DNA of 64,000 bases, from the NCBI GenBank assembly GCA_042567505.1, contig JBHPJW010000002.1, forward strand, positions 17,686 to 81,685, given 5' to 3'. The DNA is from Fibrobacterota bacterium. GTDB taxonomy: Bacteria > Fibrobacterota > Fibrobacteria > UBA11236 > JADFYW01. A model generated the notes under the pieces. That model searched no databases. It worked only from the letters and a program-made list of their open reading frames with translations, and was not told the origin of the DNA. Position numbers and translations under genes: made by a program. Of the stretch, positions 31,554-52,619 are shown piece by piece (within the stretch, counting starts at the first letter, position 1; each line of letters opens with the position of its first letter).

Positions 31554-31582
31554 ATTTGCTCCTCCTTTCCAACACCGGTAAG

Positions 31583-34039: not shown

Positions 34040-34822
34040 TTAACTCCTGAACGCCTCGATGTACGAGTCCGCGTAGATGGAGCGGTTCATCATGAGTTCG
34101 GCCGTGAGAATGGCATTGACCATTTCATCATCCATCATGTCCAGAATGGCCGCGTCAGCTCCGTTTGCGATAAGCATAGTGATAAAGGTCCTGTCTATCA
34201 GGTGCTTTTGTTTGGTGCCGTTGGAGATATTACTCAGGCCGCACACGATGTGAGGGGGCGGATCGTTGAACAACGTGAATTGATTGGCCGCCTTTAAAAT
34301 CTCAGGAGACTGTTCCTGCATGAACTTGAGGGGCATCACAATCGGATCCAGAAAGAGCTGGTCCGCCTCAAGTCCATATTCCATGGCCTTGGCAAACAGC
34401 ATTCCGGCGTTTTCCACCCGCTTGTCGGCGGTCTTGGGACTGCCTTTGGCGTCCATAGCCAGCCCTATGATGGAGGCGTTGTATTCGGCCACCACCGGAA
34501 ACAGAGCGTCCATGCGCTCGTCAATGGCGGCTACGGAGTTCACCAGGGGAGGTTTCTTGCAGACCGGGATGGCCTCTTTCTGCATAACGATTTTGTTGTT
34601 GTCGATGCTGATGGGGGTTTCCACCTCATTCTGCACGGTCTCTATCATCCAGCACAGATCTTCGGGCTTGTTTGACGCCGTTCCCATGTTCACGTCCAGG
34701 TAGGTGGCGCCCTTGTCAGTCTGTTTTTTTGCCCACTCCCTGATGGGATCCGGGTCTTTGTTGACGATTGCTTCCTTGATGTCCTTAAAGCCGGCGTTAA
34801 TTCTTTCACCGATAAAAATCAT
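34040..34822 (-). CDS. acsE: Methyltetrahydrofolate:corrinoid/Fe-S protein methyltransferase
   Basis: IGERING-like start, LDVNMG, ISID, NSV, DPIVMP and CGLSNISNG pterin-binding barrel; last gene of the acs cluster. Confidence 0.92.
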   Translation of the reverse strand: MIFIGERINAGFKDIKEAIVNKDPDPIREWAKKQTDKGATYLDVNMGTASNKPEDLCWMIETVQNEVETPISIDNNKIVMQKEAIPVCKKPPLVNSVAAIDERMDALFPVVAEYNASIIGLAMDAKGSPKTADKRVENAGMLFAKAMEYGLEADQLFLDPIVMPLKFMQEQSPEILKAANQFTLFNDPPPHIVCGLSNISNGTKQKHLIDRTFITMLIANGADAAILDMMDDEMVNAILTAELMMNRSIYADSYIEAFRS

Positions 34823-34838
34823 TTTTTGTCTCCTTTCC

Positions 34839-35795
34839 TTATGATAATCTCTCTATGGTCTGTCGCATTGTCTTAATGGCTACAGGATGGGCCATCACCA
34901 AGATGTCGGTCCCCGCCTGGAGATAATCCGCCGCGCAGGCGGCTTCCCACATCGGCCCCCTTCTTTCAGGGTCTCCCCAGCCCGGTAGCACGTCTTCTCC
35001 GGCGCTGGCGTCTTTTATTCTCCACACTTCGCCGCCCACATCGGCCAGCTGCGGGGCCGCCATGAGCTTGTCTCCCTTGAGTCCCGTGGTCCGGGCCCTT
35101 TCCAGGATAGTATATACATAGTCAAGGCCGTACCCCAGGGCGGCGGTGGTTTGGAACATGACAACGTCCTTGAGATCATAACCGGCGTCCTGCAGGAGTA
35201 TATTCACCTGCTTGCCGATGTTAATGTCCACCGGAGCCTCTGAGATAATTTTGTGCTTGTCGGCTTTGCAGATGGCGACCACGGTCTTGTAATTGCTCTC
35301 TTTGGCGGAGCCTATCAGGCAGTTCTCGCCCCTGGCCGCGGCCGAGCATTCCTGCAGCACGGAAGCGTCCTTGTCATCGTCTCCGCAGCCCCAGATTATC
35401 AGGGGAACATCCACCGCCTTCAGCACGTCCTGCACCACTTTAGCGCAGTCGGAGGCCGAATTATTTTTTCCCGAAGGATCGGCCCCTATCATGCTCAGGC
35501 TTATCAGGTCGCAGCCGAACTCGCTCACGCATTTCTTCGCCCAGTCGGCCGGGGAATTTATCTCATCGCCTATGGCTTTCTTTAAAAAACCAGGCCAATC
35601 AGGAGGAATGTCGGCTACATATCCGGCTATCACCGGCGGATTGGCTATTTCCCCCTCAAATGTCATGGAGGGCAGGGTGGTGTGTCCGCCCACAGTCACG
35701 GTCTTTCCCCGTGTACCGCCCTGCTCCGAAGCAGCGCCCAGCGTTACCTCATTTATTTTGCTTGTCCATCTCTCATTTACCTTGGGTATTTCCAT
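34839..35795 (-). CDS. acsD: Corrinoid Fe-S protein small (delta) subunit
   Basis: VTLGA...GGTR...VTVGG, TAALGYGLDY, RGPMWE and GTDILVMAHP motifs. Confidence 0.95.
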   Translation of the reverse strand: MEIPKVNERWTSKINEVTLGAASEQGGTRGKTVTVGGHTTLPSMTFEGEIANPPVIAGYVADIPPDWPGFLKKAIGDEINSPADWAKKCVSEFGCDLISLSMIGADPSGKNNSASDCAKVVQDVLKAVDVPLIIWGCGDDDKDASVLQECSAAARGENCLIGSAKESNYKTVVAICKADKHKIISEAPVDINIGKQVNILLQDAGYDLKDVVMFQTTAALGYGLDYVYTILERARTTGLKGDKLMAAPQLADVGGEVWRIKDASAGEDVLPGWGDPERRGPMWEAACAADYLQAGTDILVMAHPVAIKTMRQTIERLS

Positions 35796-36546
35796 TTTTT
35801 CCTCCTATTTTTTCCATCATAAAAAAGATACCTTCCTTTGCCGGAGAGTTCAATTTCCGAAGGGACTCGCTGTTGAAAATCGCCTCCTCAACGGCTTCAT
35901 CTTCCGGCACATCAAATAAATATTCCATCTGTGTTTCCTCAGCCAATTTCTTTATGCTTTCCCTTCGACCCTCCTTGAGCATGTTAGTGACCAGGTATTT
36001 TTTTCCCACCGGATTTTTCAGCTTCCTAGTTATCTGCTCGATGTTCTTAGCGGTATTCAGGGAAATGGGGTTGTTGTTCACCACCACTACCAAGATGTCA
36101 ATGTTCGAGGTCGTCCGGCGGCTGATGTGCTCAAGCCCGGCCTCATTATCGATGACCACCCATTTATAGGATGGCGTGAGATCCGCGTGGAACTTCCTTA
36201 TCAGGTTGTTGAGCGCGCAATAACACCCCGAACCCTCTCCCCTGCCCATGGTGATGAGATCAAAGCCTTCGGCCTCCTCCACTATTCCGTGCAGGCCGGC
36301 CTCCATGTAGTTTGCCTTGGTCATGCCGGGGGGAAAGTCCTTCATCTCTTCCAGGACCTCGTTGCGCAGGTCCCCGATGGACTGCCCTGTGGTGATGCCA
36401 AGCAGGGTGCCCAGGTTCGAGTCCGGGTCGGCGTCAATGGCCAGCACCGGCCCCATGTTTTTGGTGATGAGGTAATCGACGATCAACGCGGCAATGGTAG
36501 TCTTGCCTGTGCCGCCTTTGCCTGCTACGGCTAGTGTTTTGGCCAA
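35773..36546 (-). CDS. cooC: CooC/AcsF nickel-insertion ATPase
   Basis: GKGGTGKTT, DADPDSNL, GSGCYC and DNEAGLEHISR motifs. Confidence 0.92.
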   Translation of the reverse strand: MAKTLAVAGKGGTGKTTIAALIVDYLITKNMGPVLAIDADPDSNLGTLLGITTGQSIGDLRNEVLEEMKDFPPGMTKANYMEAGLHGIVEEAEGFDLITMGRGEGSGCYCALNNLIRKFHADLTPSYKWVVIDNEAGLEHISRRTTSNIDILVVVVNNNPISLNTAKNIEQITRKLKNPVGKKYLVTNMLKEGRRESIKKLAEETQMEYLFDVPEDEAVEEAIFNSESLRKLNSPAKEGIFFMMEKIGGKNGNTQGK

Positions 36547-36570
36547 GGTAAAGGCCTCCCTGGGAATAGG

Positions 36571-36607
36571 TTGGAGTAATGGAGTACTGGAGTGATGGAG
36601 TATTGGG
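36571..36607. repeat. Left arm: 9-bp tandem repeat (TGGAGTNNT) inverted relative to 37081-37117
   Basis: TTGGAGTAATGGAGTACTGGAGTGATGGAGTATTGGG; 33/37 match to the reverse complement of the other arm. Confidence 0.92.
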
Positions 36608-36631
36608 TTCTTTTTTGGGGTGATGACGTCC

Positions 36632-37093
36632 TCATTTCATACCGCTTTCATATGAGTAAACATCATCACGCTCTTTTTCTGTAAGGGAGTCTACCCAATC
36701 TCCATGATTCCTTTTATGTTCCAGGCTCTCAACCAATTTGAGCAAACCGTTTTCCAATTTATATGCTAGTGCATCTAATTTTTCATAATCTTCGTCTGTA
36801 ATCTGCTCGGCTTTCTTATAGGCAATATTACCTGATACAGATTCACCCAGAGAACCCAAGGCAATATTCAAGAACTGAAGATATTCCCGTATTGACTTTC
36901 TACAGTATCCTTCAGCGATATTCCCGTGGATGGAATCGCTGGATACAATAGCCTGAGAGGCAATCCGTTTTAAATGATAAGTAAATTTGCTGTACACTTT
37001 ACTTGATGATACATAGTAGTCCACTGCATCCCGCCATACCCGCAGCTTCTGATATCCACGATTCTTGTTTCTGTTCTTCCCCCAATACTCCAT
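36632..37093 (-). CDS. Four-helix-bundle protein (23S rRNA intervening sequence protein / Avd-like family)
   Basis: GYQKLRVWRDA, Q...SS.SI.GNIAEGYCR...EYLQFLNIALGSL.E motifs; AT-richer than its neighbours. Start is the ATG at 37093 or the TTG at 37117. Confidence 0.9.
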   Translation of the reverse strand: MEYWGKNRNKNRGYQKLRVWRDAVDYYVSSSKVYSKFTYHLKRIASQAIVSSDSIHGNIAEGYCRKSIREYLQFLNIALGSLGESVSGNIAYKKAEQITDEDYEKLDALAYKLENGLLKLVESLEHKRNHGDWVDSLTEKERDDVYSYESGMK

Positions 37094-37117
37094 TACTCCA
37101 ACACTCCAGTACTCCAA
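37081..37117. repeat. Right arm of the 9-bp-unit inverted repeat
   Basis: CCCAATACTCCATTACTCCAACACTCCAGTACTCCAA; begins a few bp after the acsV stop codon on the coding strand. Confidence 0.92.
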
Positions 37118-37121
37118 AGGG

Positions 37122-39008
37122 TTAAGCTTCTGCTCCAGAAAAGTATTCTATATCCGTATGCGGCAAAAACATCGCCTTCTGAAACTCCTCCACGTAGTCA
37201 TCCGCGCCCATCAGGTCATAGTAGGTGGTGTTCTCCTCTATTTCCCTGGTCTTTTTAAATCCCTCCCGGTGCAGCGCGGCAATTTTGGCTCCCATCAGGG
37301 ACGTATTCCCCGCAAACTTCACCCTCTCCCGGGGTATGTTTGGAATGAGCCCGATGTTGATTGCGTTATTTATGTTTATGTGTTTGCCAAAGGCTCCCGC
37401 CAGGAAAAACACATCTATGTCTGAAAATTGCATGTCGAGCCGGTGCAGCATGATTTTCATAGCCGCGAAAATCGCCGCCTTGGCCGTTATGATATTTTCA
37501 ATATCAGCTTCTGAAATAAATATCATTGACTTGTTGCGCTTCTCGTTTCTCTTTAACAATACATATTGCCTGATGCCATCCTTTTTCTTAATCCTGTCAG
37601 GCGGGCCGTCTACGATTTTCCCGGAACGGTTGATGATTTTCCGCTCAAGCATGACGCTGATGAGATCGATGATGCCGGAGCCGCAGATTCCCCGGGGAGG
37701 GACATTTCCAATGGTCTCGAAACAAAGCCTGCCTCTCTTTACGGACACTTTTTCTATGGCCCCTTCTTCAGCCCGCATGCCGCATTCCACGCTGGCGCCT
37801 TCCAGCGCCGGACCGGCCGAGGCGGAACAGGACATCATCCACTCCCGGTTGCCCACGATTATCTCGCCATTAGTGCCGATGTCAACCAGCAGCGACATTT
37901 TTTCGCTGTTATACATGCCGGTGGCCAGGATGCCGGCGGTCAAGTCGCTGCCCACCCAGCCGCTGATGCCCGGCAGGCAGTAGAGGAGGCCCGTGGGATT
38001 GATTCTGAGCCCTACTTCCCCGGCCCTCAGCACCGGAGGTTCAACCGACGACGATACATAGGGCGTACGACGGATGTTCCTGGTGGGCAGGTCGAGCAGA
38101 AAGTGGGTCATGGGAGTGTTTCCCGCGCATACAACCGCGTTCACATCCCGTATCTTAACGCCGCTTTGCTTGAGCAGGCCCTTAATGAGCCTGTTGATGT
38201 CCCGGACCAGCGCCTCGTGCAGTTTGTCATCGCCTTTTTTTTCCGCCGCAATCATGCGGGCGGTTACTTCCCTTCCATAAGTCATCTGGGAATTGAAACA
38301 TGCCGCCGCTCCTGCGGTCTTATGCGAGACCGCGTCAATGAGGTGCGCCACCAGGGTGGTGGTCCCCATGTCAACTACTATCAGGTAGTTATCCATTTCC
38401 GTATTCCCGCCTTCCATATTCATCAGGCGCATAGAGTCTCCGTTAACGCCCACGGTGGCGGTCACACGGAATTTGTGCTTGCGGAGCCCGCCGGGAAGGC
38501 ACTTGATGATGGAAAGCGGCGTGGTAATCGTTGAAACTCCGAGTTTCTTCCTGATGGCGGCGCATACCCGTTGATGATCAGCCATGTTTGATGCCAGGGT
38601 CGGTTCCTCCAGTTCCAGATAGATTTTTTTTACTAAAGGTGATGGGATGAATTCCAGTTCCCGCAATTTGGTATCAAGCTGTGCAAATCGGCGAAGGTCA
38701 CTGTCCACGGCTGTTTTTTTCCTGACCAGGGATTTTCTGGGGATCTCGACCGTAAGATCGGATTCCGCTTCTGCCAGGCAGGAAAGCACCATGCCCCCGC
38801 CGGCCTCTTCCCGCGTCAACCTTTCCGAGATCCCTCCGGCGGTTTTTCCCTTCTTCACCTTCATCCGGCAACCGCCGCAGGTTCCTTCGCCTCCGCACAG
38901 ACTATTGACCAGGATCCCTGCCCTGGAAGCCGCTTCTAAAAGGGTTGCGCCTTTATCAACCTGAACGGTTTTTTTTTGTGGAAGAAAAGTGACCTTACAT
39001 GAAGGCAT
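37122..39008 (-). CDS. acsV: Reductive activator of CFeSP (RACo/AcsV; 2Fe-2S plus ASKHA ATPase)
   Basis: N-terminal CGGEGTCGGC...C; DMGTTT, DIGTNGEI, SAGPALEG and GICGSG motifs. Confidence 0.92.
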   Translation of the reverse strand: MPSCKVTFLPQKKTVQVDKGATLLEAASRAGILVNSLCGGEGTCGGCRMKVKKGKTAGGISERLTREEAGGGMVLSCLAEAESDLTVEIPRKSLVRKKTAVDSDLRRFAQLDTKLRELEFIPSPLVKKIYLELEEPTLASNMADHQRVCAAIRKKLGVSTITTPLSIIKCLPGGLRKHKFRVTATVGVNGDSMRLMNMEGGNTEMDNYLIVVDMGTTTLVAHLIDAVSHKTAGAAACFNSQMTYGREVTARMIAAEKKGDDKLHEALVRDINRLIKGLLKQSGVKIRDVNAVVCAGNTPMTHFLLDLPTRNIRRTPYVSSSVEPPVLRAGEVGLRINPTGLLYCLPGISGWVGSDLTAGILATGMYNSEKMSLLVDIGTNGEIIVGNREWMMSCSASAGPALEGASVECGMRAEEGAIEKVSVKRGRLCFETIGNVPPRGICGSGIIDLISVMLERKIINRSGKIVDGPPDRIKKKDGIRQYVLLKRNEKRNKSMIFISEADIENIITAKAAIFAAMKIMLHRLDMQFSDIDVFFLAGAFGKHININNAINIGLIPNIPRERVKFAGNTSLMGAKIAALHREGFKKTREIEENTTYYDLMGADDYVEEFQKAMFLPHTDIEYFSGAEA

Positions 39009-39013
39009 CTATT

Positions 39014-40345
39014 TTATTTTTTCCAATTTTCATTCAAAAACGCGGGTATCTTGGATGCCAGTTCAGGCCCGATAATCACTTCTTTCCAGTCTGAAGTGTC
39101 CTCGATTTCCGCCCTGAACACCGGCAGATAGCCCGGAATTATCAGTTTGCGGTGTTTTACCTTATCCGCCACGCCCTGCTCTTGTATGGTCTTCACCACC
39201 TTTTCCACGGAAATTTTGTCCCCCGCGTATGCATTAAGCACTCCCAATCCTTCGGTGTCCACCACGCAGATATAGGCGGGCACCTTGCTCCGTTCCACTT
39301 CCCCTTCCACGCTGAAATAGGTGAGGGAAAAGTTGGTGGTGAAAAGAACTGGCGAATCCTCATTGGGCTGCCCCACTTCGTACAGTTTGGTTTCAACAGT
39401 GTTGGGCTTTTGAGGATCGGTGTAGACATTCTGGACCGTGGTCATGATGGGAAGCAGCTGGCAGGGCTCCACGCCGTTGATAACCACGATACCCGCGTAC
39501 TTAGCCGCGAAGGTGCTGGCTAAGACAGTTTCCACTTCGGGTGAGTCCGCTTCGATATCAACCATGGCGGGAAATCCCAGCTCCCGGAAGTTTTTCTTCA
39601 AGGCCGCTCTTCGGGCAATGGTTATGTTTCTCAGGGTGTCGCCCGCGTTTAGAGAACCAAAGGACAGAACCAGGTCCGTCACGCCCTTGTCCTTGGCCTT
39701 CTTGGCATTGTCAGCCATTTCTTCCAGGTTCGCTCCGCCGATGGCCAGCGGTGCCTTTACGGCAACTGCTACTTCAGCCAGAGCGTCCACGCTGGAAGCG
39801 TCGGCTTTATAAATAAGCGGATTCTGGTCCTTCACGGCCTCCACCGCGGCCTTTAAGGCGTCCGCGGAGCCCATCAGGATCAGGGGAACACTGCTTTTTT
39901 CCGCGGCCAGCTTGGCCCGGCCTGCCGGGTCGCCGCCGTCAACTTCCACAGCGCATAACTCGACTTTGAGTTCTTCGCCAACTCTTATGAATTTGGCATT
40001 ATTGATCTTTTCAATCTTGGCGGCAGCTTCATCATCGGAAAGCGAAGCGGGAACCCGTACCGCAATACCTGTGCCGTGATGAAACTTTTCCTCGTGCCGG
40101 AACATCACTGTTTCCTGACCGAACACAAATTGTTTTCCCTCCGGCCCAATCTTCACCAGCTTCATGGGAGGCGCGGAAGCGTCTGACAATGCTGACTGAG
40201 CGTCATCGGAAATCTCCGGACAGTCGCTTAAAGCTTTCTGCTTGGCCGCGACCTGCATGGCAAAGGCCATACATGTGGGAAAACCGCATTCTTTGCAGTT
40301 AGTTTTGGGTAAACTCTTGTAGATTTGCATTCCTGTTAGTGCCAT
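39014..40345 (-). CDS. acsC: Corrinoid Fe-S protein large (gamma) subunit
   Basis: LPKTNCKECGFPTCMAFA 4Fe-4S motif; YTDPQKP, TTNFSLTY and G.GVL.AYA motifs. Confidence 0.97.
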   Translation of the reverse strand: MALTGMQIYKSLPKTNCKECGFPTCMAFAMQVAAKQKALSDCPEISDDAQSALSDASAPPMKLVKIGPEGKQFVFGQETVMFRHEEKFHHGTGIAVRVPASLSDDEAAAKIEKINNAKFIRVGEELKVELCAVEVDGGDPAGRAKLAAEKSSVPLILMGSADALKAAVEAVKDQNPLIYKADASSVDALAEVAVAVKAPLAIGGANLEEMADNAKKAKDKGVTDLVLSFGSLNAGDTLRNITIARRAALKKNFRELGFPAMVDIEADSPEVETVLASTFAAKYAGIVVINGVEPCQLLPIMTTVQNVYTDPQKPNTVETKLYEVGQPNEDSPVLFTTNFSLTYFSVEGEVERSKVPAYICVVDTEGLGVLNAYAGDKISVEKVVKTIQEQGVADKVKHRKLIIPGYLPVFRAEIEDTSDWKEVIIGPELASKIPAFLNENWKK

Positions 40346-40378
40346 TTGATCCTCCTTAATAAAATCGGTTACGTCTGT

Positions 40379-40697
40379 CGGTGACGGTGACGGTTACGGT
40401 GACGCCTGCCCCCCGCGACGGTTGGGGAATGCCCGTTTCGTCTTTCGGTGATGTTTAGGGTGATACTTCGCCACAAACTGTCATTCCCCGCGAAGGCGGG
40501 GAATCTATAAAGATGGTTGTCCGTGTATAAATTCATTTTGAACAAATCCGAAAAAAAATTACAATTTTTTTTCTGTTTTTGTACTTCCCAATATCTGCTA
40601 TATCTTCTCAACTATTCCCAGATTCCCCGCCTTCGCGGGGAATGACAGGGCGGATTACCTTATTTACTCACTGTCACCGTCACTGTTTCCGTCACAG
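40379..40697. repeat. Nested cassette: hexamer (CGGTGA) tandem arms enclosing a perfect 29-bp REP doublet
   Basis: CGGTGA/CGGTTA x4 at 40379-40404; inverse degenerate array at 40667-40697; CTGTCATTCCCCGCGAAGGCGGGGAATCT at 40478-40506 and its exact reverse complement at 40620-40648. Confidence 0.9.
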
Positions 40698-40698
40698 C

Positions 40699-42918: not shown

Positions 42919-42973
42919 AGTTGATACTCCTATTTCAATTTTAATGATCCATTGTTTAAATAAAACCTTAGTA

Positions 42974-43110
42974 TGTCATTCCGGCGAATGCCTAATACTG
43001 TCATTCTGACGAAAGTCAGAATCTTTCCATGGTAAAATTTACTCTGGAAAGATGCCGGGTCAGTGCCCGGCATGACAAACTTGAGCTTTTCGGTCAAGTC
43101 CGGAATGACA
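42974..43110. repeat. Mosaic of four REP-like units (BIME-like)
   Basis: TGTCATTCCGGCGAATGCC, TGTCATTCTGACGAAAGTCAGAATCT, AGATGCCGGGTCAGTGCCCGGCATGACA and TCGGTCAAGTCCGGAATGACA. Confidence 0.75.
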
Positions 43111-43131
43111 TTGCTTATCATCTTAAACATC

Positions 43132-43905
43132 TTAATACACCAGTTTAGAAACTCTTCTCCTGCACTCCGGACACTTCTCAAAAATGTCTTCACGCAGGTT
43201 CAGCTTAACCTTCTTCTTAATAGTCTTTAAATGAACTACCGGAGCAAAGGATTTTCCACACTCCGAGCAGGCCTTCATCTCGTGCCAGGTGTCCCAGTTT
43301 TCCATGAACAGGTTTTTCCCATCCTGACTCACTTTAATAGCTCCGGTTGGGCATACATTGGCGCAGGCGTTGCAAGCGATACAGATCTCCTTGGTGACCT
43401 GATACGGCGACACGAGTTTTTTATTGATACCTCTGAATGCTATGCTGATTCCGCCTGTGCACATGACATCGTGACAGGCGCGCACACAAAGCCCGCAAAG
43501 GATACAGTTTGATTCCCCCTTGTCCTTTGTTTCGAATCTTTCTTCCGCTCCGTACTCTTTCGCCATTTCATTTAAAAGGGGAGATTCCGGAGCGCGGGAA
43601 AGCAGCAATTCCAATATTACTTTTCGTTCCTTGCGGACTTTGGGAGTATTCGTCTGAACCACAAGCCCGTCTTCAACCGGATACACACAGGAGGCGTCGA
43701 TCCAGTTATAGGTTTTTCCCCGTTTGGTGACGCTCATCTCCACGATGCAAATACGGCAGGAAGCATACATGGGCAGCGATTCGTGGTAGCACAGTGTCGG
43801 AATAAAAACTCCGAGCTGCTTGGCGGCCTCAATGACCAGAGTGCCTTTGGGAACCTGAGCTTTACGTCCATCTATCTCTATATTCAGCAATTTTTCCTCA
43901 GTCAT
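43132..43905 (-). CDS. NuoG/HydA-like Fe-S subunit (2Fe-2S plus 2x4Fe-4S; no catalytic domain)
   Basis: PTLC...ASCRIC...SC; CILCGLCVRAC; CIACNACANVC; C-terminal CxxC...CxxC; no H-cluster or Mo-binding domain. Confidence 0.88.
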   Translation of the reverse strand: MTEEKLLNIEIDGRKAQVPKGTLVIEAAKQLGVFIPTLCYHESLPMYASCRICIVEMSVTKRGKTYNWIDASCVYPVEDGLVVQTNTPKVRKERKVILELLLSRAPESPLLNEMAKEYGAEERFETKDKGESNCILCGLCVRACHDVMCTGGISIAFRGINKKLVSPYQVTKEICIACNACANVCPTGAIKVSQDGKNLFMENWDTWHEMKACSECGKSFAPVVHLKTIKKKVKLNLREDIFEKCPECRRRVSKLVY

Positions 43906-43909
43906 AGCT

Positions 43910-45802
43910 TCAGACCTTGTTCACAGAATCAAATTTACAGACATCGAAGCAAATCCCGCACTTGGTGCACTTGGCTTTATCCAGCACGGCAATCTCCTTT
44001 TTCTTCCAGCTGATCGCGTCAGCAGGGCACTTTTTATAACAGGCACCGCACATTGACTTTGCACAAGCCTCAGCGTCAATTTCAAATTCAAACAGGGCTT
44101 TGCATACGCCTGCCGGGCACTTCTTTTCCTTCACATGCGTCATATATTCATCACGGAAATACCGTATCGTACTAAGCACTGGGTTAGGGGCGGATTTCCC
44201 CAAAGCGCACAGGGAACAGTGTTTAATTACTTCAGAAAGTTCTTCCAGAAGCTCTACGTCGCCATCCTTGCCTTTCCCCTCTGAAATCCTGTCAACAATT
44301 TTATACAGCTGGTAGGTTCCCTCACGGCAAGGCGTACACTTTCCGCAGGATTCCTCCACCAAAAAAGAGAGAAAGTAGCGGGCCACATCCACCATACAGG
44401 TGTCTTCGTCCATCACGATGATGCCGCCTGAGCCCATCATCGAGCCGACTTTGGTGAGTTCATCGAAATCCACCGGCATGTCGATCTTATCAGCGGGTAT
44501 ACAGCCGCCGGAAGGCCCGCCTGTCTGCACGGCCTTGAATTTTTTGTCTCCCGGGATGCCGCCGCCCACATCGTAAATAATCTCTCTCAGGGACAGTCCC
44601 ATGGGAACTTCCACAAGCCCGTTGTTGTTTATTTTCCCCACCAGAGAAAATACCTTGGTGCCCTTGGAACCTTCTGTTCCAATGCTCGCATACTCTTTCG
44701 CGCCCATTTTAAAGATAATGGGAACATTCGACCAGGTCTCAACGTTATTAAGGGTGGTCGGTTTTTCCCGCAAACCGGCTTCTACCGTATGTATATGCTT
44801 TACCCTCGGCTCCCCTACTTTTCCTTCTATGGAAGCCATCAACGCGGTGGACTCTCCGCACACAAAGGCGCCTCCACCCCTGCTTATCTTTATATCAAAG
44901 GAAAAGTCCGTGCCGAAGATGTTCTTGCCTAATAAGCCGTGCTCACGTGCCACCGCAATGGTCTTCCGCAGGGTTTCCACGGCAAGCGGATATTCAGCGC
45001 GCACATATATATATCCCTCCGTGCTGCCTATCCCGTATGCGCCGATGGCCATTCCCTCGAGAACGCTGAACGGATCGCCTTCCAGCACCGTCCTGTCCAT
45101 ATAGGCCCCCGGGTCGCCTTCATCGGCGTTGCAAATGACATATTTCGGAGATCCCGAAGCCTTGCTGCATGACCTCCACTTCCTTCCCGTGGGAAACCCG
45201 CCTCCTCCGCGGCCCCGCAGGCCGGCTTCCGTAACCGTGTCAACGATATCATCCGGTTTTAATCCGGTGAGGACGTTATACAGGGACCGGTATCCTCCCC
45301 TGGCGATATATTCTGAAATGTCCAGCGGATCTACCAGGCCGCTGTTGCGCAGGGCAATCTTAAACTGCGGCTTGTAGAAAGGAACCTCCTTGTATTCCTT
45401 TATATCCGCGGCTTTTTTGTTATCAACGCCGTCCACCTTGAATCCGCTGTTATTCAGCTGCATGAGAGCATGTTTTCCCGGAGTTTTTCCATCAATCCAT
45501 TCGGGAATGAGCTTTTCCATTTTCTTAGGGGTCAGCTGACTGTAAATAACCGGGGCCAGGCCTGGAACCATTACATTAAGCATGGGCTCAAGCTGACACA
45601 GACCTATGCACCCCGTCCGAGCCAGCACAACGTCAGTTCCCTTGAGGGCCTTCTCCAGCTCGCTATAGAGTTTATCCGCGCCGGATGCGCGGCCGCAGGT
45701 ACCCATCTGAACAGCGATTTTCACTTTTCCAGGGAAAATCCTGGTCTTTCCCTTTTTGCCCAGGCTCTCCAGCTGTTTTAAATCTTTCACTAACGTGGCC
45801 AT
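43910..45802 (-). CDS. NuoF/HydB-like FMN/NADH-binding subunit
   Basis: GLRGRGGGGFPTG, NADEGDPGAYMDR, AFVCGE, ESCGKCTPCREG; N-terminal 2Fe-2S (GCIGLC) and C-terminal 2x4Fe-4S. Confidence 0.93.
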   Translation of the reverse strand: MATLVKDLKQLESLGKKGKTRIFPGKVKIAVQMGTCGRASGADKLYSELEKALKGTDVVLARTGCIGLCQLEPMLNVMVPGLAPVIYSQLTPKKMEKLIPEWIDGKTPGKHALMQLNNSGFKVDGVDNKKAADIKEYKEVPFYKPQFKIALRNSGLVDPLDISEYIARGGYRSLYNVLTGLKPDDIVDTVTEAGLRGRGGGGFPTGRKWRSCSKASGSPKYVICNADEGDPGAYMDRTVLEGDPFSVLEGMAIGAYGIGSTEGYIYVRAEYPLAVETLRKTIAVAREHGLLGKNIFGTDFSFDIKISRGGGAFVCGESTALMASIEGKVGEPRVKHIHTVEAGLREKPTTLNNVETWSNVPIIFKMGAKEYASIGTEGSKGTKVFSLVGKINNNGLVEVPMGLSLREIIYDVGGGIPGDKKFKAVQTGGPSGGCIPADKIDMPVDFDELTKVGSMMGSGGIIVMDEDTCMVDVARYFLSFLVEESCGKCTPCREGTYQLYKIVDRISEGKGKDGDVELLEELSEVIKHCSLCALGKSAPNPVLSTIRYFRDEYMTHVKEKKCPAGVCKALFEFEIDAEACAKSMCGACYKKCPADAISWKKKEIAVLDKAKCTKCGICFDVCKFDSVNKV

Positions 45803-45807
45803 AAACT

Positions 45808-46341
45808 TTAACTCTTATATTGCTTTAAGATTTTCTTGATTTTTTCCGGCTGGAGATTGCCGAAGGTCTTTCCGTTGATCATCAGGACAGGAGCCAAGCT
45901 GCAGCACCCCAGACATCTCACCGTCTCCACTGAAAAGTGCCTGTCTTCGGTTGTTTCCCCGTCTTTAATGCTGAGTTGGTTATAAAGCTCATCCATAAGC
46001 CGGCCGGCGCCCTTGATATGACAGGCGGTGCCGGTGCAGACCTGAATATTATACTTTCCTTTGGGAATCAGCGAGAAAGCGTTATAAAAAGTGGCTACCG
46101 AAAACACCCTGCTTAAAGGAATCTCCAGATGGGAGGCCGTGGACCGCATGCAGTGTTCCGGAAGATAATGTAATTCCTCCTGGACCTCCTGCAGAATGGG
46201 CAGCAGAGATTCGGTATCTATGTCATACCGGTTTATAATTTTCTCAACCGAAGCTTGTTCTTCCTTTATCTCTTCCGGAGACAGCTCTGCTTCCGGAGGG
46301 GAAGCCTCTGCTACCGTGGATACCGTGTCTTTTTCAGCCAT
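45808..46341 (-). CDS. NuoE/HydC-like 2Fe-2S subunit
   Basis: VATFYNAFS, VCTGTACH and VRCLGCCSLAP motifs. Confidence 0.93.
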   Translation of the reverse strand: MAEKDTVSTVAEASPPEAELSPEEIKEEQASVEKIINRYDIDTESLLPILQEVQEELHYLPEHCMRSTASHLEIPLSRVFSVATFYNAFSLIPKGKYNIQVCTGTACHIKGAGRLMDELYNQLSIKDGETTEDRHFSVETVRCLGCCSLAPVLMINGKTFGNLQPEKIKKILKQYKS

Positions 46342-46851
46342 CTACGCTTCGCCCTTCTGAATCTGGACCATGTATTTCTTGCGCTTGAGGGCCGCAGCCT
46401 CATCCGGGGCCGCGTATTTAATGGCGCCGGTGGGACAGCCTTCCACGCAGGCCGGATTTTTACCTTCGGCCAGCCTTTCGTGACAGAGGTCGCACTTGAT
46501 CATGACCCGCTCATTTTTGCCTTTGCGCATCACCCCGAACGGGCAGATGAGGATACACTCATGGCACCCGATACATTTATCGTTATCCACAATCACCGGG
46601 TCATCCACGGATAAACGGGAGATGGCTTTGGTCGGGCACACCGCCATGCAGGGCGCGTCCTCACAGTGCCGGCAGTGCAGCGGCATGGTCATTTCTCCGA
46701 ACTGCTGCAGAATAACCCGGTTCACCGGACTTGGGGACTCCAGCATGGCTTCTTCCAGATTTTTACTCTGGGAGTGGGCAACCGCGCAATGCAGTTCGCA
46801 ACTATGACAGGACATGCATTTTTCAACATCAACTACGATTATTTTTTTCAT
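46342..46851 (-). CDS. cooF: CooF/HydN-like 4x[4Fe-4S] ferredoxin
   Basis: CMSCHSCELHC, CRHCEDAPC..VCPT, CIGCHEC..ICPFG and KCDLC...ACVEGCPT. Confidence 0.9.
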   Translation of the reverse strand: MKKIIVVDVEKCMSCHSCELHCAVAHSQSKNLEEAMLESPSPVNRVILQQFGEMTMPLHCRHCEDAPCMAVCPTKAISRLSVDDPVIVDNDKCIGCHECILICPFGVMRKGKNERVMIKCDLCHERLAEGKNPACVEGCPTGAIKYAAPDEAAALKRKKYMVQIQKGEA

Positions 46852-46862
46852 TGATGGTCTCC

Positions 46863-48788
46863 TTATGCCTGGTAGGGATATGGCTGTTCATACATGGGCG
46901 GCTTCAGTTTTAAAGCCGCGCGCTTTTTATCGATATGGGCTATCATTTTCTGTGCCGCTTTCACGGGGTCCAGCTCAAAGGCCCATTTGCCTCCCGTCTC
47001 CTGCTCAATCTCATCGGTGAGATAGTTGAACAGGTTTTTACTTCCCATCATGGGGAGGGGAGTGCCTATCATGGTATATACTCCGGAAGCGACAACGTAG
47101 AATCCGATGGCCACGGCTTTTTCACTCATCCATTCCGGGGCCGCGCCGGCCACGGGCAAATCAGAAATATCATCACCCAGCCCGCCTTCAGACACGATGT
47201 TGGTCAGGGTGGTGAGAATACGGCTGTTGTCAACACAGGACCCTAAATGCAGTACAGGAGGAATGCCCACCGCCCGGCAGATTTCCTGCAGGCCTTCACC
47301 GGCATATTTCTCCGCGGCCTCGGGCTGCAGTAAACCGTGCTTGGCGCAGGTGACAGCGTTGCATCCGGTAGTAACAACCAGGACATCGTTGGCGATAAGC
47401 TCCTTGACCATCTTCAAATGTCCCTCTTCATAGGGGACATTGGGATTGGAGCAGCCGATAACTCCGGCCGCTCCGCGCAGCCTGCCGGAAATCACCGCGT
47501 CGTTCAAGGGCCGGTACGTGGCCCGGTATTTGCCCCCCAGCATGGTAAAGACGTCTTCAGTGGTAAAGCCCGCAACCAGTTCTTCTTTATCATCGGGGAT
47601 TTGAACGCTTTTTCCCTTGCGGTTGGGGAAATTATCTATGGCTGTTTCCAGAATCTTAGTGGCAATCTCTACGGCCCTGTCTTCAGAAAACTCAATATGC
47701 TCAACACCGGGCATTTTAGCCTTGGGAGACGTGGTGATGAGCTTGGTGTGAAAACATTTACTCACGGTATCGAGAGCGGGCATCAGGCACTGCACATCCA
47801 CCACCATGAGGTCCAGGGCGCCGGTTACCATGGCCAATTCCTGCTGCAGAAAGGTGCCGGCCAGAGGGATGCCGTGCCGCATGAGGATTTCGTTGGCCGT
47901 ACAGCAGATGCCGCCCAGGACTATCCCCTTGGCGCCTTTTTCTTTGGCTTTTGCGATTAATTTTTCGTCCTGCGATACTATTGCTATGATGTCTGACAAG
48001 GTGGGTTCATGGCCATGTACGATAACATTTACATGGTCTTCTTTCATTATGCCGAGGTTGGCTTCGGACCGGATATTCTGTGGACGTTTGAAAATAATAT
48101 CAGATAATTCAGTCGCCACCATGGAACCGCCCCAGCCGTCCGCCAGCGCGGCACGCATCCCGTGGTGAATGATATTTTTATAATCACAATCCACCCCCAT
48201 ATTGGTGCGATGCATGGCCTCTACTACTTCCCTGTCTACAGCGCGGGGAAATATGCCCAGTTTATTCCATAAGTCCTTTCTGGCTTTAGGAGCTTTTTCG
48301 GCGATTCTCATTTGCCCCTCATAACGCCCAAATTCTTCAAGACCGGCAATGGCCACATCTTTGGCAATATCTTTTACCTCACGGCCTTCAGTCTTGATTT
48401 TGTATGCCTCTGCTACCTGCATTAATTTTGTCTCATCCTTTATCTTATAGTCACAATTTGGATCTGTAGCCGCCATGAGAAGAGTATGGGCGATGTCCCG
48501 GCCATGGTCCGAGTGAGCCGAAGTTCCTGCAGCTATCATTCGAATAATATTTCTGGCCGCAATAGTATCAGCGTTTGCGCCACACACACCCTCTTTAGGG
48601 CCCTCTCCAAAAGGATCAATCCTGCATGGACCCATGTTACATATTTTACAACACAAACCGGTGGATCCGAACCCGCATTGAGGCTGCATGCCTTCATACC
48701 GGTCCCATACAGTTTCTATATTTTCAGACTCTGCCCGCTTCACCATTTCCTTTGAAGCGTTATCAGCATATTTTAATTCTTTAGCCAT
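46863..48788 (-). CDS. cooS: Ni,Fe CO dehydrogenase catalytic subunit (CooS/AcsA)
   Basis: D/B cluster QCGFG..GLCCKICNMGPC; C-cluster ligand contexts HGHEP, CCTANE, DVQC, GCSN, GCNA and GSCVDN; WMSEKA lysine. Confidence 0.98.
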   Translation of the reverse strand: MAKELKYADNASKEMVKRAESENIETVWDRYEGMQPQCGFGSTGLCCKICNMGPCRIDPFGEGPKEGVCGANADTIAARNIIRMIAAGTSAHSDHGRDIAHTLLMAATDPNCDYKIKDETKLMQVAEAYKIKTEGREVKDIAKDVAIAGLEEFGRYEGQMRIAEKAPKARKDLWNKLGIFPRAVDREVVEAMHRTNMGVDCDYKNIIHHGMRAALADGWGGSMVATELSDIIFKRPQNIRSEANLGIMKEDHVNVIVHGHEPTLSDIIAIVSQDEKLIAKAKEKGAKGIVLGGICCTANEILMRHGIPLAGTFLQQELAMVTGALDLMVVDVQCLMPALDTVSKCFHTKLITTSPKAKMPGVEHIEFSEDRAVEIATKILETAIDNFPNRKGKSVQIPDDKEELVAGFTTEDVFTMLGGKYRATYRPLNDAVISGRLRGAAGVIGCSNPNVPYEEGHLKMVKELIANDVLVVTTGCNAVTCAKHGLLQPEAAEKYAGEGLQEICRAVGIPPVLHLGSCVDNSRILTTLTNIVSEGGLGDDISDLPVAGAAPEWMSEKAVAIGFYVVASGVYTMIGTPLPMMGSKNLFNYLTDEIEQETGGKWAFELDPVKAAQKMIAHIDKKRAALKLKPPMYEQPYPYQA

Positions 48789-49539
48789 GTGTCAGCTCCT
48801 GTTCTAGTTTATTCTTTACTTTATAAATCTCTTCTTTAGTTTCCCCATTAATGGAAAATCCACGATAATCGAGAAGCGTTTCATCATAGGGAACAGCGCT
48901 TAAAACCTCAGCGCCGGTCTCACTGATAATCCTTTCAAGATCTTCCGGTTTTCGTACTTTGTTGGCAATCACTGCTATCTGTTTTATGTTCAGGTCCCCG
49001 GCCAGTTTTTTTATCCGGTCAAAAGTCTGCAGGCTGCTGGTAGTGGCTTCAACCACAACCAGGAGCAGATCCACAAACTGGGCTGTGCCTCTGCCCAAGT
49101 GCTCAATGCCTGCCTCCATGTCAATAATAACTATTTCGTCCCTGGCCACCAGCAAGTGGCTGAGCAGCTGCTTAACCATCACGTTTTCAGGACAGACGCA
49201 ACCACCGCCGCCCCTGCGCACTGTACCCATAACCATGTGCTTGATTCCGTCCTTTTCCACAGAAAACCTGTCAGGGATATCATCAACCTTGGGATTCATG
49301 GTGAAATAAACGGTGGATTTTCCTGGTTCAGCTCCCACCCTTTCCTTTATCAGTTCCTTCATCTCCGCCAATGGAGTGATTTCCTGTTCCTCAGAAAAGC
49401 CCAAGGCATTGGCCAGGTTGGCGTCAGGATCGGCATCTATGGTAAAGACCTTCGCCCCCTCATCGCTGAAAGCGCGCGCCAGCATGGCCGCTATGGTGGT
49501 CTTGCCCACTCCTCCCTTACCTGAGATGGCTATTTTCAA
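48781..49539 (-). CDS. cooC: CooC nickel-insertion ATPase
   Basis: KIAISGKGGVGKTT, DADPDANL, GGGCVCPEN and DMEAGIEHLGRG. TTG at 49539 preferred over GTG at 49572, which lies inside a REP. Confidence 0.92.
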   Translation of the reverse strand: MKIAISGKGGVGKTTIAAMLARAFSDEGAKVFTIDADPDANLANALGFSEEQEITPLAEMKELIKERVGAEPGKSTVYFTMNPKVDDIPDRFSVEKDGIKHMVMGTVRRGGGGCVCPENVMVKQLLSHLLVARDEIVIIDMEAGIEHLGRGTAQFVDLLLVVVEATTSSLQTFDRIKKLAGDLNIKQIAVIANKVRKPEDLERIISETGAEVLSAVPYDETLLDYRGFSINGETKEEIYKVKNKLEQELTHG

Positions 49540-49567
49540 TGTCTCTCTTCCTTTTTCTTCTGCTTTT

Positions 49568-49631
49568 GTCACACTTCGACAAGCTCAGTGTGACGCTTCC
49601 CCGTCATCCTGAACCTGTCGAAGGATGACGG
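49568..49631. repeat. Pair of REP-like hairpins (CTTCGACAAGCTCAG family)
   Basis: GTCACACTTCGACAAGCTCAGTGTGAC and CCGTCATCCTGAACCTGTCGAAGGATGACGG, in opposite orientation. Confidence 0.75.
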
Positions 49632-49648
49632 TAATCTAATTCTCCTGT

Positions 49649-50602
49649 TCAAACCTCCGGCCTCGGCAATAATCCAGCTTTTTCCGCAAATCCCATAACT
49701 GTCTTTTCCGCTTCTATAGCCATGAAATGAACACCGCGCACCCCCTCTATTTCCTTCATTTCCTGCACCTGCTCGATGGCGATCTGCTGTCCTTCCTCTT
49801 TGGGGTCTTCGGCCTTTTTCATCCTCTCTATCATATGGTCCGGAACCGTCATGCCGGCCACATTGTCCCGCATGTATTCAGCCATCCTGACTGATTTTAA
49901 AGGCGTCACACCGGCCAGGATAGCGGTCTTCTCATGCAGCCCCTTGTTGACTACTTCCTTCATCCACTTCTTAAAACGGTCCATATCATAAATGCACTGG
50001 GTCTGAATAAAATCAGCACCGGCATTGACTTTCTTGGCAAGTCTGGTGGGCCGATAATCAATGGGTCCCCCAAACGGATTGGCGGCAGCGCCTATAAAAA
50101 TTCTTGGTTCCACCACCGGGCCCTTTTTGCCCTGTTTAATTTCATCTCCGCAGGCGAACTGCTTTTCGTCGCGCATTTTTTTCAGCATGGCTATCAGCTG
50201 CATGGAATCCAGATCATAGACGTTTTTGGCGGTGGGATGGTTGCCGAAACACTGATGATCGCCGCTCAGGCAGAGGATATTGTGCACCCCGAGAGCATAT
50301 GCTCCCAGCACGTCCGCCTGAATGGCCAGCCGGTTGCGATCCCGGCAGGTTATCTGCATGACCGGTTCCAGACCGCATTCAATAGCAATCACACTGGCGG
50401 TCAACGAGGACATCCTGACGATGGCGGTCTGGTTGTCGGTGATATTCACCGCATCCACAGCGCCTTTTAAGAACTCAGCTTTTTTCTGGACATGCTCCTT
50501 GTCCGCACTCTTGGGAGGGCCCAACTCGCCGGTGAAGACAAATTCAACCTTGGCCAGGAGTTTCTCCAGCCTGCCTCCGGATTTTAACGCAGTCTCATGC
50601 AT
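49649..50602 (-). CDS. metF: Methylenetetrahydrofolate reductase catalytic subunit
   Basis: ELGPPKS, AVNITDNQ, QITCRDRN, LCLSGD and GADFIQTQ motifs. Confidence 0.96.
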   Translation of the reverse strand: MHETALKSGGRLEKLLAKVEFVFTGELGPPKSADKEHVQKKAEFLKGAVDAVNITDNQTAIVRMSSLTASVIAIECGLEPVMQITCRDRNRLAIQADVLGAYALGVHNILCLSGDHQCFGNHPTAKNVYDLDSMQLIAMLKKMRDEKQFACGDEIKQGKKGPVVEPRIFIGAAANPFGGPIDYRPTRLAKKVNAGADFIQTQCIYDMDRFKKWMKEVVNKGLHEKTAILAGVTPLKSVRMAEYMRDNVAGMTVPDHMIERMKKAEDPKEEGQQIAIEQVQEMKEIEGVRGVHFMAIEAEKTVMGFAEKAGLLPRPEV

Positions 50603-50636
50603 CGTTTATCTCATTTAATCAACATAGCCCATGGGT

Positions 50637-50752
50637 TGTCATTCCCCGCGAAGGCGGGGAATCTGCCCGCTTATGTTTTCCTCAAGATTATAATAGCTGT
50701 ATTCCTCATGTTTAAACTATCAGGAGTTTCCCCGCCTTCGCGGGGAATGACA
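50637..50752. repeat. REP doublet in inverted orientation between metV and metF
   Basis: TGTCATTCCCCGCGAAGGCGGGGAATCT at 50637-50664 and an inverted copy with one mismatch at 50725-50752; the first copy is identical to the core of the unit at 40478. Confidence 0.9.
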
Positions 50753-50754
50753 TG

Positions 50755-51429
50755 CTATAGCATTACGTCCTCTCTCTTAACCGTCCTCGGGCCGCCGTCA
50801 CGCGCAGTCGACCAGTCCTTTAAAGGTTGATTGGCTTCAAGTTCATCCAACCTCCCCAGCTTTTCCATCCGATCATATATCAGCTGCCAGGCGCAATCGA
50901 TGTTTTCCGTGTCCACCTCGCATTTGCCATTGGTAGAGCCCCCGCAGGGCCCGTTCATGATGCTCTTGGAACACCGGGCAATGGGACAGATGCCGCCGTA
51001 CTGCTCCAGAATGCACTGCCCGCATCCCGCGCAGCGCTCCGCCCACACACCCTGTTGCAGGTTCGTGCCAAAAAATTTGGTATCCAGGCCTGGATACACG
51101 ACCATTTCCGGAACAACTTCTATCCCGTATTGAACCCCCACTCCACATGCAGTTGAGATGACCGCGTCAACTTCGCCTATCTTTCTGACCGTTTCCTCAT
51201 CAAAAAATTCCCGATCGCACTGGCGGGTTATGGTATGTTCTTCAACCGTGATATCGTCGCCTTTTTCCCTGGCCGCCAGCTTTATCTGAGACGCTAAAAC
51301 ACCAACTTCCTTTTCTCCACCGGCCATGCAAACAGTTACGCAGGTCCCGCACCCGAGGATTAGCACCTTCTTATGCCTTTTGGCATAATCGTATACTTCA
51401 TCAAAAGGTTTTCTTTCTGCGACAATCAT
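50755..51429 (-). CDS. metV: MetV (methylenetetrahydrofolate reductase Zn/Fe-S subunit)
   Basis: MIVAERKP, GCGTCVTVC, ACGVG, CAGCGQC, CPIARCSKS..NGPCGG and CAW motifs; GGAGG RBS. Confidence 0.93.
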   Translation of the reverse strand: MIVAERKPFDEVYDYAKRHKKVLILGCGTCVTVCMAGGEKEVGVLASQIKLAAREKGDDITVEEHTITRQCDREFFDEETVRKIGEVDAVISTACGVGVQYGIEVVPEMVVYPGLDTKFFGTNLQQGVWAERCAGCGQCILEQYGGICPIARCSKSIMNGPCGGSTNGKCEVDTENIDCAWQLIYDRMEKLGRLDELEANQPLKDWSTARDGGPRTVKREDVML

Positions 51430-52557: not shown

Positions 52558-52619
52558 TGAAAACCTCCTCTTTTATGTTATTCTATTTAATATCCTTATT
52601 TTTTTTAAAATTTTCCAAT

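Follow-up and report, generated by a model that had tools for sequence, protein, structure and literature searches.

A probable host-encoded Wood-Ljungdahl gene cluster in an uncultured member of the class Fibrobacteria

What is a gene cluster for carbon monoxide dehydrogenase/acetyl-CoA synthase (CODH/ACS) doing in a relative of Fibrobacter? To our knowledge, the cultured Fibrobacterota (Fibrobacter, Chitinivibrio and Chitinispirillum) are fermentative polymer degraders that lack the Wood-Ljungdahl (reductive acetyl-CoA) pathway. The DNA considered here, called the window throughout, is a stretch of 64,000 nucleotides (positions 17686-81685) of the 114,653-bp contig C112. The contig belongs to G000, a metagenome-assembled genome (MAG) of 3.23 Mb in 235 contigs, with 48.5% GC, 66% completeness and 0.9% contamination. 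At 34040-51429 the window carries genes for CODH/ACS, its corrinoid iron-sulfur protein and the methylene-tetrahydrofolate (THF) reductase pair MetVF. We consider it likely that this is a genuine, host-encoded Wood-Ljungdahl cluster of bacterial type in an uncultured member of the class Fibrobacteria, with the history, electron route and role proposed below.

The cluster consists of 15 collinear open reading frames (ORFs), all on the minus strand and all where the initial annotation had placed them; NCBIfam and Pfam profile matches, given below in bits against the family cut-offs, support its reading of the region for all 15. In order of transcription they encode MetV, MetF, CooC, CooS, CooF, a NuoE-like, a NuoF-like and a HoxU-like protein, AcsB, AcsC, AcsV, a four-helix-bundle protein, a second CooC, AcsD and AcsE. 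CooS/AcsA, the catalytic subunit of the Ni-Fe CO dehydrogenase (46863-48788), matches TIGR01702 with 667 bits (cut-off 478). AcsB, the A-cluster subunit of acetyl-CoA synthase (40699-42918), is of the full-length bacterial type and reaches 1010 bits against NF040764 (cut-off 800). The corrinoid Fe-S protein is represented by its large subunit AcsC (39014-40345; NF003195, 512 bits, cut-off 306; Pfam CdhD and FeS domains) and its small subunit AcsD (34839-35795; NF003376, 359 bits, cut-off 280), followed by AcsE, the methyltransferase that acts between methyl-THF and this protein (34040-34822; NF005719, 266 bits, cut-off 259). At the front of the operon lie MetF, the methylene-THF reductase (49649-50602; Pfam MTHFR, 149 bits; the MTHFR part of NF006396, 220 bits), and MetV, its Fe-S/zinc-ribbon partner (50755-51429; Pfam DUF5981, the MTHFR C-terminal family, 123 bits).

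Do these genes encode enzymes that could carry their metal clusters? The initial annotation had described the ligands of CooS and AcsB as intact and had counted two cooC genes and acsV as maturases; both statements held up. CooS keeps the cysteines of the D- and B-clusters (C38, C46, C47, C50, C55 and C69) and the ligand and catalytic motifs of the C-cluster (AHSDH, HGHEP, CCTANE, DVQC, GCSNP, TGC, GSCVD and SEKA), and the solved structures nearest to it are those of the ACS-associated CODHs from Clostridium autoethanogenum and Carboxydothermus hydrogenoformans (about 687 bits). AcsB aligns with the ACS of Moorella thermoacetica at 655 bits, with C517, C520, C529, C539 and C606-G-C608 matching the A-cluster residues C506, C509, C518, C528 and C595-G-C597. 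Each CooC-type nickel-insertion ATPase has a P-loop and a CxC nickel motif: GKGGVGKT and CVC in the first copy (48781-49572; MinD/ParA-type P-loop matches), GKGGTGKT and CYC in the second, CooC/AcsF-type copy (35773-36546). Their positions, upstream of cooS and between acsV and acsD respectively, are kept in related loci. AcsV/RACo, the reductive activase of the corrinoid protein (37122-39008), has all four RACo Pfam domains (Fer2, RACo_linker, Raco_middle and RACo_C_ter) and scores 590 bits against NF040756, under that family's exception-level cut-off of 800. The components by which a bacterial CODH/ACS is recognised, namely AcsB, a Ni-CODH, AcsC, AcsD and AcsE, CooC/AcsF and RACo/AcsV, are thus all encoded.

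The acs clusters of the acetogens M. thermoacetica, C. autoethanogenum and C. hydrogenoformans share with this one the AcsA/CooS, AcsB, AcsC, AcsD, AcsE, AcsV and CooC families, and the A-cluster motifs of the M. thermoacetica enzyme are identical. The window differs from them in its Fibrobacterota host, in the CooF gene and three-subunit Bfu-like module between cooS and acsB, in the joining of metVF to the front of the operon, and in the four-helix-bundle gene between acsV and cooC.

Who is the host? The flanking genes had been taken to point to the Fibrobacterota, and an RpoB tree, UvrC on C112 and named relatives all agree. In the RpoB tree G000 falls within one GTDB family, f1 (78-79% identity), and then with f3, the large family of the same order (about 73%). 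The class as a whole is sister to NCBI-named Chitinispirillaceae and 'Fibrobacterota bacterium' MAGs (about 62%); the Spirochaetota stand at about 54%. RpoB thus places G000 in the Fibrobacterota and not in a known Wood-Ljungdahl lineage such as the Desulfobacterota. A Desulfobacterota origin of the cluster was also rejected, as AcsB from that phylum is only about 49% identical and belongs to a different clade. Names link the GTDB phylum to the Fibrobacterota: 'uncultured Fibrobacterota bacterium binchicken_co256_1030' and G122 have identical AcsB, as have 'Chitinispirillaceae SPRUCE 591' and G061, and GTDB assigns both G122 and G061 to the same phylum as G000. A protein on the contig of G004, a MAG of family f1, was deposited under 'Fibrobacteria bacterium'. 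UvrC, a housekeeping marker on C112 24 kb from the cluster (7936-9930, plus strand; TIGR00194, 550 bits), is 54-59% identical to its homologues in relatives of the family and order, 44-48% in the class, 40-41% in other Fibrobacterota and 35-40% in Spirochaetota. Judged by these markers, the host is a member of the class Fibrobacteria in the Fibrobacterota, and its family is sister to a large one that is ACS-free.

Does the cluster belong to the contig on which it lies? At 33.8-34.0 kb, where a chimeric junction had been considered, composition, UvrC, collinearity with G004 and the pathway-linked genes that flank the host-type block gave no sign of one. By tetranucleotide distance to the MAG centroid, a test of limited discriminating power, the two 10-kb chunks of the cluster are typical of the MAG, at the 83rd and 53rd percentile of G000 chunks. 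G004 has a collinear operon, identical to that of the window at 75% of residues in MetV, 86% in MetF, 60% in CooC, 56% in CooS, 44% in CooF, 80% in AcsB, 82% in AcsC, 65% in AcsV, 74% in the second CooC and 82% in both AcsD and AcsE. After acsE, G004 continues with a DUF166 gene and a 341-aa gene, homologues of ORFs at 20672-21457 and 15062-16108 in the window, and then with fhs-folE-purH-folD-serA, the group that forms contig C233 in G000.

The two companion genes were at first candidates for markers of host flank, and were rejected as such because both adjoin acs clusters in other phyla (KSB1, Spirochaetota, the Planctomycetota-Verrucomicrobiota-Chlamydiota (PVC) group, Prolixibacteraceae and Hydrogenedentota). 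The DUF166 protein (20672-21457, minus strand; Pfam DUF166, with a CxxCxxxCxxC motif) is separated from acsE in the window by 12.6 kb of host-type genes. Its gene stands right after acsE in G004 (65% identity), and also downstream of acsE in loci of KSB1, Spirochaetota, Planctomycetales, Kiritimatiellae and Lentisphaerota; the protein, itself uncharacterised, is conserved alongside this type of acs operon. Because this gene and the 348-aa gene at 15062-16108 are linked to acs in other phyla, pathway genes stand on either side of the host-type genes at 21.6-33.8 kb, an arrangement that looks like an insertion in situ and not a chimeric join. The inserted block (21605-33826, relative to G004) encodes two paralogous DUF4874/DUF4832 proteins, an FGE-sulfatase/PKD protein, a glucodextranase-B/fn3 protein and a DUF4423 protein. 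Polysaccharide-related proteins are encoded in the flank of the cluster. A 421-aa protein of the left flank, tried as a taxonomic probe, was uninformative, giving paralogue-type matches of 24-29% in relatives. On the other side, abutting metV, is an operon of c-type cytochromes (51838-60982), one with an ethylbenzene-dehydrogenase-like haem domain, together with a 717-aa cytochrome bd-I-like protein; its adjacency to the Wood-Ljungdahl cluster looks incidental.

How old is the cluster in this lineage? Among 40 close GTDB relatives, AcsB is confined to family f1, where G000 and G004 carry it and G001 has a fragment at a contig end. No fewer than two further genera of the family have the cluster. 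AcsB is absent from G002, G003 and G005 of these relatives and from all 33 sampled genomes of the sister family f3, in agreement with the view of cultured Fibrobacterota as lacking the pathway. On the RpoB tree, the simplest account of the occurrence of AcsB in G001, G000 and G004 is that the family ancestor had it and that two losses followed. Within the family, AcsB has diverged about as far as RpoB (80% and 78% identity). G005, of the same GTDB family, is a single contig of 1.6 Mb, 98% complete, with a long RpoB branch and neither ACS nor fhs; it gives the impression of a reduced lineage, perhaps one associated with a host.

Across the phylum, AcsB is found in 26 of 296 species genomes (about 9%), spread over 18 of 70 genera; of 172 high-quality genomes, 13 have it, and five further families carry ACS of the window type or of a second type. 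The initial annotation had suggested AcsB and CooS phylogenies as a check. In these, the window AcsB is sister to that of G004 (100% SH-aLRT); the clade around this pair takes in KSB1, another four Fibrobacterota and 17 Spirochaetota MAGs and is itself sister to PVC sequences, and both AcsB and CooS fall in clades of Spirochaetota/KSB1/PVC type; outside the family the closest relatives of the two proteins are from KSB1, Spirochaetota and PVC MAGs (71-79% identity). A look-up of the exact AcsB sequence, meant to trace the sample of origin, returned no record. The second type of AcsB is unrelated (53-56% identity) and common to Fibrobacterota, Hydrogenedentota and Prolixibacteraceae. In this second type acsB and acsD share one open frame of about 1160-1216 aa (L124 1474-4974; L040 10001-13477; L120-L133), which indicates an AcsB-AcsD fusion protein.

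The segments of the operon tell different histories. The window CooS groups with L030, KSB1 and Spirochaetota (73-76%), and the CooS of G004 (G004:C110 8715-10640, L157) pairs with a Lentisphaerota sequence and is 56% identical to that of the window. G004 also lacks the NuoE, NuoF and HoxU genes, though its AcsB is the sister of the window's. For CooF, NuoE, NuoF and HoxU of the window, the nearest counterparts are in the Spirochaetota loci L006 and L015 (56-66%), with other Fibrobacterota at 34-56%. By these comparisons the cluster is a mosaic in which the CooS/CooF/Bfu segment has a history different from that of the ACS segment; modules of this operon would have been swapped between phyla. 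About 20 loci of Spirochaetota, KSB1, Fibrobacterota (Chitinispirillia-like), Kiritimatiellae, Verrucomicrobiota and Planctomycetota keep the same order, cooC-cooS-cooF-nuoE-nuoF-hoxU-acsB-acsC-acsV-cooC-acsD-acsE, with AcsB 71-79% and CooS 68-76% identical to those of the window and in the same clades. These are unannotated MAG loci, known from their genes. The window differs from them in having metVF directly upstream, where only the KSB1 locus L004 has metF, and in its four-helix-bundle insertion.

That insertion, a gene of the 23S-rRNA-IVS type with bracketing repeats (36571-37117, minus strand, ORF 36632-37117; TIGR02436 and PF05635), is flanked by 37-nt inverted repeats (36571-36607 and 37081-37117) that are 89% complementary and built of units of about 9 nt. 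None of about 80 related acs clusters carries a homologue, and the gene therefore looks like a small element inserted inside the operon. An Rfam scan of the whole window returned no riboswitch or other RNA match at gathering thresholds. Between 33.5 and 52.2 kb, counts of sigma-70 promoters and intrinsic terminators were not above those in shuffled sequence, and boundaries of the operon could not be drawn from them.

Is the rest of the pathway present? The initial annotation had noted that fhs, folD and fdh are not in the window. They are indeed outside it, and all three are found on other contigs of G000. C233, a contig of 7.9 kb, carries the group serA-folD-purH-folE-fhs, with fhs at 1121 bits (cut-off 938) and folD at 578 (cut-off 501). 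C170 encodes a 1115-aa FdhA fusion (880 bits, cut-off 666) with no in-frame stop, in which a HoxU-like Fe-S N-terminus precedes the FdhA catalytic part and a NuoE-like C-terminus follows it (G000:C170:79731-86165, L156). Its neighbours encode a 2Fe-2S ferredoxin, a NuoF-like protein and a GltD-like NAD(P)-binding protein; the formate dehydrogenase is predicted to be NAD-linked. It is adjoined by an HmcB/HmcC/HmcE-like membrane complex whose HmcC has five haem c motifs. Since formate dehydrogenase, fhs and folD lie on other contigs and MetVF and CODH/ACS in the window, every step from CO2 to acetyl-CoA is encoded in G000, and the pathway is complete on paper. The grouping of C112, C233 and C170 as one genome rests on binning, composition and synteny with G004.

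Beyond acetyl-CoA, G000 has acetate kinase (350 bits, cut-off 293) beside phosphoketolase on C42, and a candidate pyruvate:ferredoxin oxidoreductase on C182, a motif match not confirmed against the family library. Further along C112, outside the window (107625-114318, L160), are the large subunit of a group-3c-like (Vhu/Mvh-like) [NiFe] hydrogenase and HypF, HypD and HypE; its small subunit and any Hdr partner would lie past the end of the contig. Regex screens for the H-cluster motifs of [FeFe]-hydrogenase gave no match.

The companion gene at 15062-16108 (minus strand) may extend the reach of the pathway. Its 348-aa product has no Pfam or NCBIfam match. Among its 1114 homologues some carry the JGI name 'methionine synthase II (cobalamin-independent)', and one has PF01717. 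Four lineages have this gene in a cluster with acs genes, and it lies right beside them in G004, Prolixibacteraceae and Hydrogenedentota. For MesB, a core methionine synthase (PMC7857596) whose characterised form is that of D. mccartyi, the criteria are zinc ligands of the pattern HxC ... D/E ... C and occurrence only with the Wood-Ljungdahl pathway; of these ligands, H225-x-C227 and C323 are seen in the 348-aa protein. The protein is probably a core methionine synthase candidate of the MesB type that would take methyl groups from the corrinoid Fe-S protein.

How would electrons reach CODH? Downstream of cooS comes a CooF-type electron-transfer protein with four [4Fe-4S] clusters (46342-46851; Pfam Fer4_11; 16 cysteines in four CxxCxxCxxxC-type motifs), and then three genes that resemble the BfuABC core. 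The NuoE-like [2Fe-2S] subunit (45808-46341) qualifies as BfuC by its match to Pfam 2Fe-2S_thioredx (178 bits) and also matches TIGR01958 above the cut-off (144 bits). The NuoF-like flavoprotein of 630 aa (43910-45802; Pfam Complex1_51K, SLBB, NADH_4Fe-4S and Fer4; motifs GRGGGGFPTGRKW and ESCGKCTPCREG) has the HydB/BfuB architecture: an FMN/NADH motif, an N3 cluster motif and a C-terminal ferredoxin domain with two [4Fe-4S] clusters. Its N-terminal domain has three cysteines only (C36, C65 and C69). The third protein, HoxU-like and of 257 aa (43132-43905; Pfam Fer2_4 and Fer4 dicluster domains), lacks a catalytic domain and resembles the Fe-S N-terminus of HydA/BfuA, with cysteines for one [2Fe-2S] and two [4Fe-4S] clusters and an extra C-terminal CxxC..CxxC pair. 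BfuA is recognised by an N-terminal [2Fe-2S], a His-ligated [4Fe-4S] and two [4Fe-4S] clusters; in the 257-aa protein we found no His-ligated [4Fe-4S] motif and no match to Pfam NADH-G_4Fe-4S_3.

From gene order, we infer that CooS and CooF exchange electrons with this Bfu-type module, so that the carbonyl branch would be coupled to NAD(H) and ferredoxin. The module belongs with CODH and not with MetVF, because metVF is not adjacent to it in most related loci. We know of no Codh-Bfu enzyme that has been purified. A 'Codh-Bfu' class was predicted by Schut et al. in 2022 from four Firmicutes sequences, stated to be uncharacterised, and these enzymes were proposed to permit the use of very low CO concentrations (PMC9304861). 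The likeness lies in a CODH and Fe-S subunits encoded with a BfuABC (HydABC-like, NuoEF-type) core whose BfuB has a C-terminal two-cluster ferredoxin domain. Their four are stand-alone CODHs, whereas here the module lies inside a CODH/ACS operon and in another phylum; the BfuA-like subunit of the window differs further in having no recognisable His-ligated [4Fe-4S] motif and in its extra C-terminal four-cysteine motif.

A bolder proposal, which we put forward tentatively and hold to be doubtful, is that CODH is hard-wired through CooF to the catalytic-domain-less Bfu module, so that confurcation of NADH and reduced ferredoxin drives CO2 reduction at the C-cluster and, in reverse, CO oxidation bifurcates to NAD+ and ferredoxin. 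This would apply to the present family of Fibrobacteria and to the Spirochaetota, PVC and KSB1 bacteria with the same operon, and would make of them a new bioenergetic type of Wood-Ljungdahl organism. Were it true, the ferredoxin demand of the carbonyl branch would be halved, and an acetyl-CoA pathway without Rnf would be possible in cytochrome-rich, polysaccharide-degrading, nitrite-respiring bacteria.

What, then, is the cluster for? In the explanation that we favour, it was present in the ancestor of the family and later lost in some genera, and its modules may have been exchanged with clusters of Spirochaetota, PVC and KSB1. Electrons would pass to and from CO dehydrogenase by way of CooF and the Bfu-type flavoprotein module that lacks a catalytic domain, linking the CO2/CO couple to both NAD(H) and ferredoxin. 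Run reductively, the pathway would serve as an electron sink and assimilate CO2 during polysaccharide fermentation and the use of H2 or formate, and the corrinoid protein would probably also feed the MesB-like methionine synthase. A fermenter that uses the pathway in this way fits the gene content, because the candidate pyruvate:ferredoxin oxidoreductase, phosphoketolase, acetate kinase, hydrogenase and polysaccharide genes are all present. For the reductive direction itself we see an even chance or very slightly better.

A number of observations weigh against this explanation. The MAG reaches only 66% completeness. In the tetranucleotide comparison, a soft test, most homologous clusters from other phyla are at the 95th percentile or higher, and two foreign controls are at the 83rd-88th. 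The right flank is not syntenic with G004, and the bd-like oxidase encoded there gives weak support as a taxonomic probe, with homologues in 14 of the 40 relatives, all ACS-free and only 35-41% identical. RnfC was not detected in G000 or G004 (it was found in G001 and G003), nor was Pta in G000; the two stand for the steps by which acetogens usually conserve energy and form acetate, although at 66% completeness both absences from G000 are weak evidence. The MAG also encodes NrfH (160 bits, above the cut-off) and an NrfA-like pentahaem protein, Hmc-like membrane complexes, with two HmcC-like membrane subunits that are fused to cytochromes, and about 20 ORFs that have at least two CxxCH motifs, with up to 16, 12 and 10 haems. 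This set (C158:185-2082, C163, C126, C221 and C24) could fit a respiratory organism able to run the pathway in reverse. So cytochrome-rich and respiratory a repertoire is unexpected for a relative of Fibrobacter.

Reversal of the pathway in an organism that respires anaerobically must be taken seriously as an alternative. Complete-oxidising Desulfobacterota run the pathway in the oxidative direction. Here, CODH/ACS would mainly split sugar-derived acetyl-CoA to CO2 and pass the electrons, as NADH and as ferredoxin through the Bfu module, to nitrite ammonification or to extracellular or periplasmic cytochrome chains. NrfH with the NrfA-like protein, the two HmcC-like subunits and the HmcB/C/E-like set beside formate dehydrogenase, the many CxxCH proteins (one with 16 motifs), the bd-like oxidase and cytochrome c operon directly by the cluster, and the undetected RnfC and Pta can all be read in this way. 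Yet Nrf is the only terminal reductase identified, with no sulfate, nitrate or metal reductase beside it; the cluster contains no Hdr partner for MetVF; and a soluble NAD-linked formate dehydrogenase is typical of acetogens too. The hydrogenase and its maturation genes on C112, the candidate pyruvate:ferredoxin oxidoreductase, acetate kinase and the polysaccharide genes fit a fermenter, and the incompleteness of the MAG weakens every absence. A mainly oxidative role is possible, but we do not expect it.

Could the cluster have minor roles only? It might serve C1 assimilation, provide methyl groups for methionine by way of the corrinoid protein, or scavenge or detoxify trace CO. The MesB-like candidate linked to the cluster, the housekeeping context of fhs and folD (serA-folD-purH-folE-fhs) and the use of very low CO concentrations proposed for Codh-Bfu enzymes (PMC9304861) would suit such roles. 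An operon of 15 genes with two maturases and an activase, together with a dedicated formate dehydrogenase complex, is a large investment for them, however, and the trait has been kept in several genera of the family; we think this unlikely.

That the cluster is foreign to G000, through chimeric assembly or the mis-binning of a Spirochaetota, KSB1 or PVC contig from the same sample, is very improbable: AcsB and CooS do have their nearest relatives outside the family in those groups (71-79%), and CooF and the Bfu genes theirs in the Spirochaetota loci L006 and L015 (56-66%), but the contig, 114.6 kb long with the cluster in its middle, has a UvrC that follows the host lineage (54-59% against 35-40% for Spirochaetota), the composition of the cluster is typical of the MAG, host-type genes sit between pathway-linked genes, an independent MAG of the same family (G004) shares the operon, its AcsB being the sister of the window's, and has the same two companions downstream, and five other families of the phylum have ACS.

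With a genuine host-encoded cluster as the preferred explanation, how new is the trait? It is an extension of known biology and not a surprise, because AcsB occurs in about 9% of the species genomes of the phylum and in two unrelated types, the operon layout recurs elsewhere, and Fibrobacteres had already been mentioned in 2020. In that study, Wong et al. reported cooSF with cdhDE/acsB, and a putative Wood-Ljungdahl pathway, in MAGs of the FCB group, Fibrobacteres included, from Shark Bay microbial mats (PMC7495880); it gives the presence of the genes in one sentence, with no cluster anatomy, phylogeny, family-level placement or account of pathway completeness. Our literature search found no dedicated study of the pathway in Fibrobacterota, only passing mention. 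A termite-gut preprint of 2026, in the part available to us, assigns a complete pathway to one Breznakiellaceae spirochaete genome and does not attribute it to its three Fibrobacterota genomes. Added here are the placement in the class Fibrobacteria, the completeness of the pathway, its inheritance at the level of a family, the exchange of modules, and one more phylum for the CODH/ACS-Bfu type of operon.

The Bfu-type module is widespread in CODH/ACS operons, and offers a handle on how low-potential electrons are supplied for CO2 reduction without Rnf. In this family, sister to a large ACS-free one that probably includes Fibrobacter, a Wood-Ljungdahl pathway that appears complete stands in the same MAG as a hydrogenase, a nitrite reductase and many cytochromes. 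In anoxic sediments, uncultured Fibrobacteria may thus be fixing CO2 or recycling it, or oxidising acetyl-CoA to completion, which would alter how their part in carbon turnover is modelled.

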